A DNA stretch of 64,000 nucleotides from Octopus vulgaris (Eukaryota): contig OX597817.1 in NCBI GenBank assembly GCA_951406725.2, forward strand, positions 99,944,001 to 100,008,000, in the 5' to 3' direction. How positions within the stretch are numbered: the first letter of the stretch is position 1; every line of letters starts with the position of its first letter. Of the stretch, positions 1,307-56,079 are shown piece after piece. The position numbers and the translations under genes were made by a program. The notes under the pieces are model-generated. The model saw only the letters and a program-made list of their open reading frames with translations, did not search any database and was not told where the DNA came from.

Positions 1307-46303
<44,997 letters not shown>

Positions 46304-46966: not shown

Positions 46967-47120
46967 GTAATGAATGAGTTTAAGGATAACAAAGAATAGA
47001 GATTATCTGATTTTTTTTTTATTATGCAGTCATTAAAGTTCTTCCAGAAGAACTTTAATGACTGCATAATAAAAAAGTGGATAGTCTCCATTCTCTGTTT
47101 TCCTTAAACTCTTTCATTAT
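46967..47120. repeat. Fold-back palindrome
   Basis: Perfect 30-bp arms (47015-47044, 47047-47076) with a 2-nt loop; imperfect extension to ~75 bp. Confidence 0.9.
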
Positions 47121-47283
47121 TATTTCTTGTTGTATACTGTCAATTTAATGTGACAATAGGGGATTACACCACCGCTGTTTAGCCCTAGGAAGCATCGACA
47201 CTTCCTGTCCGCTTCGACACATTTCCTGTGTCCTTATATATTTACGAAGGGGAGACAAATACCCCCAGCAGCTAGGCCTGCAT

Positions 47284-47328
47284 CTAGGGACACGCATGTT
47301 TCAGGATCTTTGTCCATCATCGGTCTAG
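47284..47328 (-). ncRNA. Type I hammerhead ribozyme motif (CCGAUGA variant)
   Basis: CTAGA-CCGATGA-tGGA(caaaga)TCCt-GAAAC-ATGCGT-GTC-cCTAG. Confidence 0.75.
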
Positions 47329-47536
47329 AGTAGCAGAAGCCTGCTAGCTGCAGATTTACTCTTTATTATAGGCACAATGGCCCGAATTCAGAGGGGACAT
47401 TACAATACAGGACGTGGGGTACATATAATAAAAAAATCAAAAAGTATGGTATGACAATGAATTATTTGTAATGAATTAAATGGAATGGCTTTCGAGCCCC
47501 CCAAAGCTCGTAGTTTCAGTTACACTTACAATTGTG

Positions 47537-47932
47537 TTATTCAGGGCGTTCATTCGTTATGTACGTAAGTAACCTCTCCTGTTCTATAATACTTGGCAAA
47601 CTTTCATACCTAATGTAATGCATTACGCATACAGCTGTATACACATTTTTCAGTTTCATTACTGTCTCTTTTTCTACAATCGCCGCCTTCACTTGGTCAC
47701 CAAAATTTTTTGAATTTAATTTCACTCTAATTAGACTTTTCATATTTGCCAACTTCTTTTCAATTTCCTTGTCCTTCTTGTACAATATTATAGCTTTAAG
47801 ATTTCTTCCTTTTGGTCTTCCTCCTTCCTTACATTTTTCCAGCTGTTCTTCCACTCTTCTATCCCATTCTTCCGTTATCTGACAATTTGAAACTTCACTC
47901 GCTTTCGTTTCTGTATCTTTCTCTTTGTGCAT
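47537..47932 (-). CDS. In-frame 131-aa ORF immediately after the ORF1 stop (K/E-rich, function unknown)
   Basis: TGA-ATG adjacent in the same frame; lies within the ORF1-only element 47356-48998. Confidence 0.5.
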   Translation of the reverse strand: MHKEKDTETKASEVSNCQITEEWDRRVEEQLEKCKEGGRPKGRNLKAIILYKKDKEIEKKLANMKSLIRVKLNSKNFGDQVKAAIVEKETVMKLKNVYTAVCVMHYIRYESLPSIIEQERLLTYITNERPE

Positions 47933-48883
47933 TCAATCCTCCATCTCGTCGGTCAACTTCTTTTTAGCTTTTTTCTTTTTTTGTGTTTTGGATGGTGATT
48001 CCAACCGCGTTCTCTTTCTATCCTCTTTTTCTTCTGTTCTTTCCTTTTCTTTCTCCAACTCGTCACTACTTTCCACATTATCTGTAGTCACGATTTCCTC
48101 TTCCACATTCGCCTTTTGTAGTTCCTCTGTCAAAGCCTCCAGTGTTATCGTTTTCTCTTGTACTTCTCTTTGCGGACACATTTCTTTCATGTGGCCTCTA
48201 ATTTTGCATTTGTAGCACACTGGGGGTCTCCCCTCCACCACAACTCTGAGACGTGTCTCATCGGGGAAGACCAACTCCTCTGGGATGTTATACATGTCTG
48301 GCATGGTTATGTGGACCAAAGCCTGCACCGCATAACCCCACCACTTTACTTCTTTCGACTTTTCTATCTTCAATATCTCAACATTCTCTGTGCAGTTAAA
48401 TATTGTTGCCGCTACAATTCTCTCCATGTTCAGTTCTGGTGCAATTTTACTGATTCTTATTCTCACTGCCCTTTTTCCACAATAGCTAGGTAGTAACACC
48501 CGTTTTTCCGTTTTCAATATTTTCGTGGCGTTCCTCTTCGCTTCATCTTCATTTTTAAAATGAATGACTACTGTTGCATATTTTCTACCTCTATTGTAGA
48601 GGGTAGTTTCTTCTTCAATTTCCTGTAAACATCTCTCGATTTCCTCCGCTTCTGCCACTTCTATTTTCTTCGAAGCCACGCTCCACGTTCTGTATGTTAT
48701 AATACGCTTCTCCGCTTCTTTTGCTTCGTCTTCAGGTGGTGTGACCCTCACACAATCACCCTCCTTCTTGAAGTCGTTGAAGTATTTCTTCAAACTTTCT
48801 TTCTCGACAATTATTTCTTCTAACTGCAGTTCGCTCGCAGCCAGGCCCTTGCCTGCTGCTCCCGCATAAGTTTGGGCTTGCAT
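47933..48883 (-). CDS. LINE ORF1-like protein (RRM-like region, CX2CX4HX4C zinc knuckle, K/E-rich tail), 316 aa
   Basis: TYAGAA N-terminal motif, RGRKYATVVIHF, EGRPPVCYKCKIRGHMKEMCP; open frame; no RT or endonuclease in the element. Confidence 0.85.
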   Translation of the reverse strand: MQAQTYAGAAGKGLAASELQLEEIIVEKESLKKYFNDFKKEGDCVRVTPPEDEAKEAEKRIITYRTWSVASKKIEVAEAEEIERCLQEIEEETTLYNRGRKYATVVIHFKNEDEAKRNATKILKTEKRVLLPSYCGKRAVRIRISKIAPELNMERIVAATIFNCTENVEILKIEKSKEVKWWGYAVQALVHITMPDMYNIPEELVFPDETRLRVVVEGRPPVCYKCKIRGHMKEMCPQREVQEKTITLEALTEELQKANVEEEIVTTDNVESSDELEKEKERTEEKEDRKRTRLESPSKTQKKKKAKKKLTDEMED

Positions 48884-49290
48884 ACTCGGAAAAAAACCTC
48901 CAACAATTCACCATGCCGTAACAGCTTCCACCAACAAATTCGAACTCACAACCGCAATACACAATAACCGTAACACAAAATAACCGACACCAAAAAAACT
49001 GCTAGCTGCAGATATCTGTCTCGACTTCGTAAATATATATATATCTAATTTTCAGTGAAGTTTATTCACTGATCACCAAAATCAGAAATATTAAATTTCT
49101 AAATATATCATAGAGATATGTACGGTGGTGGGGCGATAGAATGGTTGTATACTGTCAATTTAATGTGACAGTAGGGGATTACACTGCCGCTGTTTAGCCC
49201 TAGGAAGCATTGACGCTTCCTGTCGGCTTCAACACATTTCCTGTGTCCTGTGTCGAGACAGATATCTGCAGCTAGCAGGCTTCTGCTACT

Positions 49291-49335
49291 CTAGACCGAT
49301 GATGGGCAAAGACCCTGAAACATGCGTGTCTCTAG
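49291..49335 (+). ncRNA. Type I hammerhead ribozyme motif (CCGAUGA variant)
   Basis: CTAGA-CCGATGA-tGGG(caaaga)CCCt-GAAAC-ATGCGT-GTC-TCTAG; predicted cleavage after 49330. Confidence 0.8.
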
Positions 49336-50464
49336 TTGCAGGCCTAGCTGTTGGGGGTATTTGTCTCCCCTTCGTAAATATATAAGGACACAGGAAATGT
49401 GTCGAAGCGGACAGGAAGCGTTGATGCTTCCTAGGGCTAAACAGCGGTGGTGTAATCCTCTACTGTCATGTTAAATTGACAGTATACCACCATTCTATCG
49501 CCCCACCACTGTACATATCTCTATGAGATATTTAGAAATTTAATATTTCTGATTATTATTTCTCTTCTATTGAAAAGCATAGTCTCTTTAAAGACAACTG
49601 GATCTTCAGGTATTGAGAATGTATGAAGAATAGTTAAACCAACAATTGAAGTACGTAAACTCATGTATGTTAACCAGCATTATCAATCAATAGAAGTGTA
49701 TATTGGTACCTGCTTGAATTATATATCCCCATCAACTAAAAAGTTTGGAAAATTTTTAGTAACTAAACTATATTGTAATCAATAACTATAGAATGAACAC
49801 AGAACTGTATAACTTTTGTATACATTTTGCATAAGATTTTTGATCTGGTGGTTTCATAGTAAATTATTAAATAAATATTCTACAAAACTTTTTTTTTTTA
49901 GAAATGGCAGCTAGATTTCCTACTGTCTGTCAAGAAAGATGTAAAACAAAGTTGAAATGGAGTAGTAGTTCAATCACAATCTGTCTGTCTTTCTCTCTCT
50001 CTCCCCAAAATAGTGGAATAGAGGGAGGGAGAGAGAGAATTAAAGGTACACATTAATAGGTATAGATACAGAATGAGGGAGAGCAAGGGTGATGACAATG
50101 ATGGCATATAAATCATATAGTGCAGGAAGAGATTACAGACATATATTCACAGCAACATTAAATAACAATAAATGTTAATAAAGTGGTCTTTAAATTCCTA
50201 GTCTGGTGTATTTAGAGAAGTGGTTGCCAAATTTTTTGAACCATCGACCCTCTTTAGCCACTTCTTCCACATCTACCTTTAGTCACGTCTACCTCTGCAT
50301 CGACCACCCTCCTCATTTAAAATACCTTAATACCTAACACTACCATACCATATCTTAAATGTGTACTGGGTACTGATGCTGGCAATTAAAATGTTAGCTA
50401 AAATATACATGTACAACAAATTAAGAAATTCTATTGAAGATGACACTTTTTACATTTAAAACTA

Positions 50465-54659: not shown

Positions 54660-56079
54660 TCTATGTATTAATACGCTTGTATCATCAGCGTTTGTCACAC
54701 TGAGAAATGTCGGGATTAAATTCGAGTTATTTCCCTTGGCTTCTGGACTGGCATTGCTGCAACACTCTTGGAAGGTGGTAAAACTCTTCACAGTATATTA
54801 AGCTTCCAGTTCCTTTGAGTGAAACAAAGTGTGTGCAATGTTCCACCAAATTCTGATCAAGGAAACATTCTTAGGCAAATAGAAGTCTTCATTATTGACA
54901 AAGCTTCAATGATACCAGTTTATGCTTTGAAAGCTATAGATAATTGTTTAAGAGATATGAACAGTAATAGTACATTTGGTGGGAAAATTATCATACTAGG
55001 AGATTTTAGACAAGTTCTTCCAGTTGTTCCCAGAGCTCCTCCTGCAGCTGTACTTGATGCCTGCCTCAAACGCTCCTTTATGTGGGATAATTTTCATTAA
55101 ATGCAACTTACGCAAAACATGAGAACAAATGCAAATGAACGAGATTTTTTGAGGTGGCTACTACAACTTGGAAGTAGATTTTTTCAAAGCTCTCTTCATA
55201 ATCTCACAGAAGATACTATTGATATTCCTGAAGCATGCATATGTAACAATTCTTTGGTATCTACTGTATTTGACAATTGTACAGCAGAAAATATGAAAAA
55301 TAGAGTGATCTTAACCCTTACAAATTCAGACTGCTTAGCAGTAAATGAAGAAATTCTAAGTAGATTGCCCAATGAAACTAAGACATATCTAAGCACTAAC
55401 TCAGTAACTTCTGAATATGCCCAGAATTCTCCCATGATGTTTATAAACTCTCTTACACCTTCTGGAATACCTCCTCATTGCCTTAACTTTAGAGTTGGAG
55501 CAATTATTAGGCTTCTTAGAACCCTCTCTATAACACAAGGTTTATGCAACGGAACTCACTTGGAAGTACTTCAGCTCTACGAGCATAGCATTGAAGTGTC
55601 AATTATAAGTGGATCTCATTCTCACACAAGAGTACTGATTCCAAACATTCCATTAATTCTGCATTGGACCCAGTTCCCGGTTCATCTGTCCTATTCTGTG
55701 ATAATCAATAAAGTACAGGGACAAACATTTGATAGAGTTGGCATACACTTGCCACAGCCATGCTTCACTCATGGCCAGCTTTACGTAGCTTTTTTAATAG
55801 CAAAGGCGATGAACAGTGTGAGGGTTAAAGTGATACCTCAAAACGATATCCACTCGTGGTCAGAAAAGGGGAATCACCTACACTAGAAACATTGTATATA
55901 GGGAGTGCTGTAATGGATGTATTTAACATATACTTTCACATAATAATAAATACTTATATTATTAATAAATATAACATAAAGGATAATAGAATTTTTCATT
56001 AACCAACATGGTGAAAATTAAACAATTTTGATTAAATGATATTTAAATTATTTGTGAATTTTTTCATGGGTCCAACTAG
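54660..56079 (+). mobile_element. Internally deleted Helitron carrying a PIF1 helicase remnant
   Basis: A|TC 5' end, CTAG|T 3' end; IIDKASM, FGGKIIILGDFRQVLPV, LTQNMR, GLCNGT, QFP..SVIINKVQGQT, FTHGQLYVA motifs (54819-55886, one stop). Confidence 0.9.

Follow-up and report, generated by a model that had tools for sequence, protein, structure and literature searches.

Animal non-LTR retrozymes are the closest described relatives of the repeat analysed here. As characterized in sections of PMC7229834 and bioRxiv 10.64898/2026.07.22.740005, they have in common with it a type I hammerhead, large target duplications and a likely dependence on Penelope. The octopus unit also resembles them in length (350 nt, against 350–390 nt in mussel), in a GC content under 45% and in lacking a coding frame. 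It differs from the retrozymes of these sections in occurring mostly as one or two units, in dispersed insertions that have two arms and two fixed 3′ ends, and in its variant cores (C4; U3-A8); moreover it hosts a site-specific LINE, and no autonomous element was found whose terminal repeat matches it. Neither octopus nor cephalopods are mentioned in PMC7229834. Penelope-like elements, in parts of PMC8557442 and PMC4209133, have similar inverted and partial-tandem ends, (TA)n, a hammerhead with a short palindromic stem III and the U3-A8 variant, whereas the unit has no RT or GIY-YIG frame. Newt satellite 2 (Coats 1994, as cited in part of PMC2220036) is a hammerhead repeat with an snRNA promoter; by comparison, the promoter of the octopus unit is deduced from a motif common with U2 genes and from LINE leaders.

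For the LINE, the nearest parallels are the Tx1-clade elements (Tx1 in Tx1D, Keno in U2, Tx1-Mar, Kibi/Koshi; part of PMC4494074), which likewise combine APE-RT, a CCHC ORF1, a fixed site in a multicopy repeat and tandems that sandwich the duplication. The octopus LINE differs from those accounts by targeting a retrozyme and U2 +1, one family being spread across unlike sequences with a common promoter spacing. HAL1, HeT-A and Ag-Sponge (part of PMC5786205) are non-autonomous LINEs that keep ORF1 only, as do the octopus half-LINEs, which are distinguished by their partner's site specificity and by long mixed tandems of diverged subfamilies. Non-LTR retrozymes, the snRNA promoter of newt satellite 2, Tx1 elements in repeats or U2 and ORF1-only LINEs are already known from the cited parts of these sources. 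The literature searched described no LINE at a retrozyme start site common with U2 +1, and Repbase or Dfam may already name these repeats. Among the papers listed that bring together octopus, Penelope and hammerheads, none, judged by its listing, concerns this element.

The locus lies in a 64,000-nt stretch of Octopus vulgaris DNA (contig OX597817.1, positions 99,944,001 to 100,008,000), hereafter the window. We think it probable that its 355-nt unit is a hammerhead retrozyme, with a likely snRNA-type promoter and likely copied by Penelope, and that the gene inside it is an ORF1-only LINE at the probable start base.

Two-armed insertions and the nested half-LINE

E2 (47128–49551) is a head-to-head two-armed insertion flanked by a 12-bp target duplication, the left copy (47116–47127) matching the right copy (49552–49563). 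Its primary arm (49252–49551, plus strand) consists of LINE-free unit nt 1–300 and ends at the primary 3′ terminus, past the last of the hairpins listed below. As the earlier note had described, a hammerhead core with an inner enclosing stem is present on the plus strand. The predicted type I motif (49291–49335) comprises stem I (49291–49295/49331–49335), CCGAUGA (49296–49302) and GAAA (49317–49320), with a predicted cut after 49330; it deviates from the consensus by C at position 4 and by U-U at the base of stem II. The enclosing stem pairs GAGACAGATATC..CAGCTAG (49255–49275) with CTAGCTG..GGTATTTGTCTC (49344–49367). The ordered 3′ hairpins (49387–49550) are GACAC/GTGTC (49387/49399), AGGAAGC/GCTTCCT (49413/49426), TACTGTCA/TGACAGTA (49461/49477), ATATCTC/GAGATAT (49515/49525) and AGAAAT/ATTTCT (49534/49545), all claimed before and all on the plus strand.

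The second arm of E2 is on the minus strand and is interrupted by a 1.64-kb ORF1-only LINE. Its downstream part (47128–47355; unit nt 13–239) includes the LINE insertion site, a hammerhead and hairpins and terminates at the secondary 3′ terminus; the candidate type I motif of this copy (47284–47328) was recognized by its pattern, with the core CCGAUGA, GAAA and GUC. The upstream part (48999–49250; unit nt 134–358 plus the duplication) carries hairpins and the promoter segment. An AT-rich TATA-like stretch (49028–49041), 15–28 nt above the LINE site, doubles as part of the 5′ strand of a stem that spans the unit junction, and the TCAGTGAA/TTCACTGA palindrome (49052–49073), whose ATCAGTG arm (49067–49073) matches the motif upstream of U2 genes, is likely a proximal promoter element. 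This hairpin (49052/49065) and TATATATTTACGAAG (49025–49039, minus strand), the outer strand of the enclosing stem, had both been listed with the other parts of the unit; they sit not in the plus arm but in the inverted one, so that the monomer of the earlier note was assembled from two opposite arms. Nor is the unit permuted head to tail, as had been proposed, the arms of E1 and E2 being head to head. Because its two hammerheads lie on opposite strands, E2 is unable to yield a monomer or a circle; with these and the stop in its ORF1, it is a dead end. A perfect palindrome of ~60 bp lies at 47014–47075, 40 bp to the left of E2.

E1 (12143–14561, plus strand) belongs to an older subfamily and has an E2-like plan, a head-to-head insertion with one arm split by a module (1.6–1.8 kb in E1 and E2). 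The element itself (12158–14546) is flanked by a 15-bp duplication (12143–12157 and 14547–14561) and is made up of an inverted arm to ~12318, a plus arm (12322–12508), a degraded half-LINE (12509–14268) and unit sequence (14269–14547). The hairpin series reported for E1 is indeed the same as in E2, with two corrections in this 3′ arm: the third pair is TGCAA/TGGCA and the hammerhead has lost stem III. The arm folds weakly (z −1.7). Elsewhere in the window are a 581-aa RT with a PHD-like finger (39291–41036, minus strand), a Pif1 helicase fragment (55101–55886, plus strand) and a histidine-phosphatase exon (10420–10830, minus strand), which suggests that the window may lie in a host-gene intron.

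The nested module of E2 (47356–48998, minus strand; AATAAA at 47362–47367; no RT) lies between two minus-strand copies of a 15-bp duplication, the 5′ copy at 48999–49013, whose first base is the putative transcription start of the unit, and the 3′ copy at 47341–47355. It encodes a CCHC protein: ORF1 (47537–48883, 448 codons) has a single in-frame stop (47933–47935), predicted tandem RRM-like domains and a CCHC knuckle (48170–48220). In a structure model of an intact sister copy the tandem RRM-like domains were predicted with a mean pLDDT of 69, and the best Foldseek matches were RRM pairs (E 2e-4). Three unit loci with different upstream sequence contain full LINEs at the same base, consisting of ORF1 and an APE-RT-zf-RVT frame; their ORF2 is closest to human L1 ORF2p (E 4e-66), and the half-LINE ORF1 is homologous to theirs (E 1e-27). 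Since full LINEs occupy the same base and the ORF1s are homologous, the 15-nt repeat is a target duplication and the module a half-LINE. By its domains and target duplication the nested element is an L1/Tx1-group LINE, HAL1-like in having ORF1 only and its own 3′ end; domain order, target specificity and motifs make it a candidate member of the Tx1 clade. The best named LINE match came from Argonauta, and a search for ORF1 homologues gave none among the 7995 candidates scored.

A first-look search with the half-LINE module returned 35325 candidates, many with open frames of 450–480 codons and arranged in tandems with or without the unit. In two half-LINE copies A>G changes account for 124 of 152 mismatches (L065:6741–7661) and 107 of 151 (L080:4870–5783), against 8 of 41 in a control; such an excess is typical of RNA editing and hence indicates an RNA stage, and both copies likely represent ADAR-hyperedited RNA that became fixed in the genome. 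Diverged ORF1-only modules form long mixed tandems at five places (L061/L062/L176, L072/L177, L074, L075/L180 and L076/L178), which have a common upstream flank with a TATA-like box; two of these tandems end in a full LINE. At L059:447–2724, head-to-head arms, each of half-LINE plus unit, are joined inside the ORF, by co-mobilization or later deletion.

Structure and dispersal of the unit

First-look searches with four unit queries gave 2914, 2737, 898 and 4051 candidates, which are lower bounds and not copy numbers. Six subfamilies were recognized from 96 natural full monomers in the fetched loci (A, 26; B, 23; C, 20; D, 20; D2, 2; E, 5). Units are 347–364 nt long (~355 nt), have a GC content of 35–44% and, with a longest ATG frame of 20–50 aa, are non-coding. 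A type I hammerhead motif was found by pattern and pairing in all six subfamilies, with a variant core, and stem II of subfamily B is normal in the alignment. The claim of a structured non-coding retrozyme family thus stands, on unit length, short frames, thousands of first-look candidates and compensatory changes, and we are highly confident that the unit represents an animal non-LTR retrozyme family. The suggestion that it is viroid-like, with RNA-to-RNA replication, is unsupported; this is a genomic DNA family with target duplications, and a pattern scan detected hammerheads only in the sense of each arm, none in the opposite polarity.

The primary arm (49252–49555) folds at −112.7 kcal/mol (z −6.8), with 0 of 100 shuffles as good. 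Circular folds reached z ≤ −2.5 in 13 of 17 cases (range −0.8 to −12.1), and the old subfamily C folds weakly. Alignments chosen for diversity comprised 25 5′ halves (of 29 proposed) and 29 3′ halves (of 37 proposed), and the named structure was derived partly from RNAalifold on the same alignments as were counted. Two-sided changes were observed in 19 of 24 pairs in the 5′ half and, leaving out the terminal hairpin, in 16 of 29 pairs in the 3′ half; covariation scores were 0.59 and 0.33, compared with at most 0.17 and 0.12 in slid controls, a slid/shuffle comparison that ignores relatedness. Both sides have changed in 11 of 11 pairs of stem I and its extension, and the ATATCTC/GAGATAT hairpin showed no two-sided change in any of its four pairs. 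Core pair 3-8 is C-G in A, B and most of D, U-A in 15 of 15 E sequences and mismatched in much of C; the swap to U-A is known in print (part of PMC4209133). The outer, junction-spanning stem is unalignable across subfamilies, and its strands were therefore swapped between molecules (86 of 96 monomers parsed): own-molecule duplexes have −24 to −35 kcal/mol, against −13 for shuffles, and come out as the most stable in all six rows and in five of the six columns. As the 5′ strand of this stem begins above the putative start site, the stem would be possible only in read-through, multimeric or circular RNA. The covariation check proposed earlier was borne out in so far as helices show compensatory changes between subfamilies; at the level of single pairs, a home-made all-pairs test with a tree null, which had no power, found no base pair at E<1, its sole top pair not being a base pair. 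The structure consequently rests on helix-level counts over ~5 independent lineages, from which we conclude that the unit fold is stable and conserved across diverged subfamilies. No Rfam hammerhead model reached the gathering score in the window or E≤1 over 47000–49700, so the hammerhead call rests on pattern and pairing; the Rfam matches at E≤1 were miRNA models only, on an unrelated palindrome, and were discarded.

The observation that E1 and E2 end at the same hairpin proved both true and general. Among 305 distinct arms, 3′ ends cluster at two sites, 150–179 nt (71 arms) and ~210–239 nt (83 arms) behind the cut site, 44 further arms being counted in the latter zone round the unit boundary. 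There is no excess of arm ends at the predicted cut site, with 6 of the 305 starts and none of the ends within 4 nt of it. Both orientations are present at 45 of 117 loci; (TA)4 stands at an end in 24 of 78, and a duplication of at least 7 nt, in some cases merely a TA run, in 47 of 78. Many two-armed loci have target duplications of 12–15 bp. Within 3.3-kb stretches picked by best match, two same-strand hammerhead positions occur at 7 of 117 loci, neither E1 nor E2 among them, so that most loci contain fewer than two units. LINE-free tandems that span the unit junction do exist. Splicing as the origin of the LINE-free junction was rejected, since a GT-AG product would miss one G. Arms within a locus exceed those of different loci only marginally in their mutual identity (0.952 against 0.932, 0.914 against 0.909, 0.934 against 0.928 and 0.842 against 0.831), and most rare variants are not common to both arms of one locus; copying from a single circle is accordingly unsupported. 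At one locus (L020) the arms are 99.7% identical.

Both the unit and the half-LINE are represented in contigs of five runs presumed to be RNA, with a dip over the hammerhead, but the dip is also seen in the deep runs X18–X20, and the unit-to-LINE depth ratio in the five runs is no higher than in X18–X20, so that these contigs support neither expression nor cleavage. Ligation at the GUC site would restore the genomic sequence, so junction reads there would not be decisive. At the 3′ end of the LINE in L198, a case that the 305-arm end screen missed, unit sequence starts at the insertion site, stops with the GUC triplet and is joined there to a half-LINE 5′ UTR, in this single case a possible trace of a cleaved RNA end. 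In a U2 array on C23 (L367, L368), each ~1.75-kb U2 repeat has a 62-nt match to subfamily D nt 245–307, which in L089 also stands alone. Other, unrelated hammerhead families lie near fetched loci (L073:2106 and 2522–2611, L104:59–585, L110:877).

Two autonomous Penelope families with long frames are present in the genome. A Penelope frame with the unit as its terminal repeat was found at 0 of 120 unit loci, five of which have Penelope fragments nearby, and no terminal sequence is common to the unit and either family (68 Penelope loci, with other ends); the only frame at E2 is ORF1. One of 95 head-to-head joins, in subfamily E (L405:3869–4790; C4:92293368–92294289), holds a 224-nt Penelope coding piece, a GIY-YIG fragment most similar (96.5%) to a Penelope copy at a distance of 2 kb; a switch of template during a single event, or else local repair, may account for it. 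Inverted and partial-tandem ends and (TA)n targets are Penelope-type footprints in the relevant part of PMC8557442, and mobilization of the unit by Penelope seems to us a good probability. An antisense match between Penelope and subfamily B (70%, 86 nt) was set aside as AT-rich. In the window, 29482–30090 is a 3′ fragment, beside (TA)n, of a high-copy GIY-YIG Penelope family (full frames ~840 aa) whose terminal repeat carries another hammerhead.

Target choice of the LINE and the likely promoter

What the earlier note overlooked is that one of its hairpins is likely a DNA promoter element and that the adjoining ORF is a nested site-specific LINE. Keno inserts inside U2, and we know of no LINE at the start site of newt satellite 2. 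The LINE loci compared here are best matches, that is, the nearest relatives of the queries and not a genome-wide sample. At 30 loci retrieved with a LINE C-terminus query, one being the query itself, 3′ ends read by eye run into the unit in 21 cases, into U2 +1 in 3, into a unit- or U2-type duplication and then another LINE in 2 and into other sequence in 4. The 21 unit-linked ends fall in subfamilies A, D, D2 or E, ~25–35 nt above the hammerhead core. Sixty LINE 5′ ends, which include both queries and repeated loci, lie behind a unit (43), in tandem (12) or elsewhere (5). Full APE-RT LINEs and ORF1-only relatives occupy one unit base in subfamilies A, B, D, D2 and E, with 14–15-bp duplications and often in tandem; seen from the unit side, a LINE 3′ end is at the site in ~8 of 120 unit loci.

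In 27 of 28 U2 genes CAGT is found 55–59 nt above +1, and for the LINE site the distance is 52–59 nt in 41 of 43 cases; inspection by eye found no such motif upstream of U6 genes. In the unit it forms the 5′ arm of the TCAGTGAA/TTCACTGA hairpin, and with CAGT ~56 nt upstream in both U2 genes and the unit, this hairpin is likely to be an snRNA-type promoter. In U2 arrays on C3 and C23 the LINE is preceded by an intact promoter and U2 bases 1–14, after which comes a second leader resembling the start of subfamily D2; this retrozyme-type leader implies that the donor RNA began at that unit base. Double leaders also occur in L218, L224 and L243, and by eye further LINE copies (L063, L230) are preceded by CCAAT/TATA-like promoters. 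The 5′ junction of unit and LINE is spanned by contigs of runs that are labelled with the names of two other organisms. These sequence comparisons make an snRNA-type start at the LINE site likely. That the LINE is guided by the promoter complex rather than by sequence is a more tentative reading, on which we remain slightly sceptical.

Proposed explanation and alternatives

In the explanation we favour, RNA polymerase II would start ~56 nt below the CAGT(G) element common with U2 genes. Tandem copies, once read through and cut by two hammerheads, would yield monomers or circles; here the long stem would pair the promoter segment with sequence behind the hammerhead; we lean towards active cleavage and circles from tandem source copies. 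A GIY-YIG Penelope RT would prime on both cut DNA strands; the two 3′ termini, head-to-head arms, duplications and preference for (TA)n are observed. The LINE would borrow the promoter of its host, its RNA thus starting with the duplicated host bases, and because the target letters differ, it may locate start sites via the promoter complex or the open DNA there.

The earlier note had raised the case of a unit that is no more than the pseudo-LTR of an RT-coding Penelope; its copies would then be truncated remnants. Penelope traits in part of PMC8557442 do include head-to-head arms, partial tandems and (TA)n targets, and according to part of bioRxiv 10.64898/2026.07.22.740005 vertebrate retrozymes derive from pLTRs. 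However, the check that was run found no Penelope ORF abutting the unit as a terminal repeat at the 120 unit loci, the 68 loci of the two Penelope families, only these two being covered, end otherwise, and junction-spanning LINE-free tandems exist; the unit being merely such a terminal repeat is very improbable. We give slightly less weight still to unit and ORF forming a single protein-coding element, a gag-only retrozyme with hammerhead units as its terminal repeats. It would agree with the 25 of 30 ORF1-only loci that touch a unit, with the two L059 arms of ORF plus unit and with L049, which has no upstream half-unit, and occasional co-mobilization in read-through RNA may happen; but the duplication varies with the host copy at each site, the ORF occurs also in U2 genes, behind other TATA promoters and in tandems that lack the unit, a LINE 3′ end is at the site in so few unit loci, and full LINEs use the same base. 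A further reading, in which the unit would be a SINE-like linear RNA, structured but with its hammerhead decayed and forming no circles, is improbable, if less so than these two. The variant core in A, the mismatched 3-8 pair in much of C, the few tandem copies and the lack of arm ends at the cut site are in keeping with it, whereas the 3-8 swap and stems I–III covary, and the junction stem, which needs multimeric or circular RNA, is kept though its 5′ strand lies above the start site.

As for the LINE site, its choice by DNA sequence or structure alone, through an endonuclease preferring an ATC-like start after an AT-rich stretch, with the promoter likeness incidental or secondary, is unlikely, though it carries more weight than the alternatives above. 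Many targets do start with ATC after T/A-rich bases, Tx1 target choice is ascribed to the endonuclease in part of PMC4494074, and one off-target copy (L032) lies in unrelated DNA with a 14-bp duplication. Against it, the letters of the duplication differ among A, B, D, E and U2 yet the distance to CAGT stays at 52–59 nt, and donor leaders show that LINE RNA began at the insertion base.

Carried further, the favoured explanation leads to a speculative picture of three tiers of parasites, which we put forward as possible rather than probable. A Penelope enzyme would spread a circular-RNA retrozyme with its own snRNA promoter; Tx1-type LINEs and their ORF1-only satellites would be start-site seekers guided by the promoter complex, hopping among retrozyme subfamilies, U2 and other promoters, silencing the circle that they enter and at times riding its Penelope route as cargo.

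The analysis adds an abundant octopus retrozyme family with comparative support for a whole-monomer fold, and marks, from sequence alone, where an animal retrozyme probably has its promoter and start site. It also provides a natural series for how target-specific LINEs choose and switch targets, with one family in unlike sequences at a common promoter spacing. If targeting does follow the promoter complex, this LINE would be a counterpart of Ty3 and TRE5, the comparison cases for such targeting, and a lead for site-directed RNA-templated insertion.
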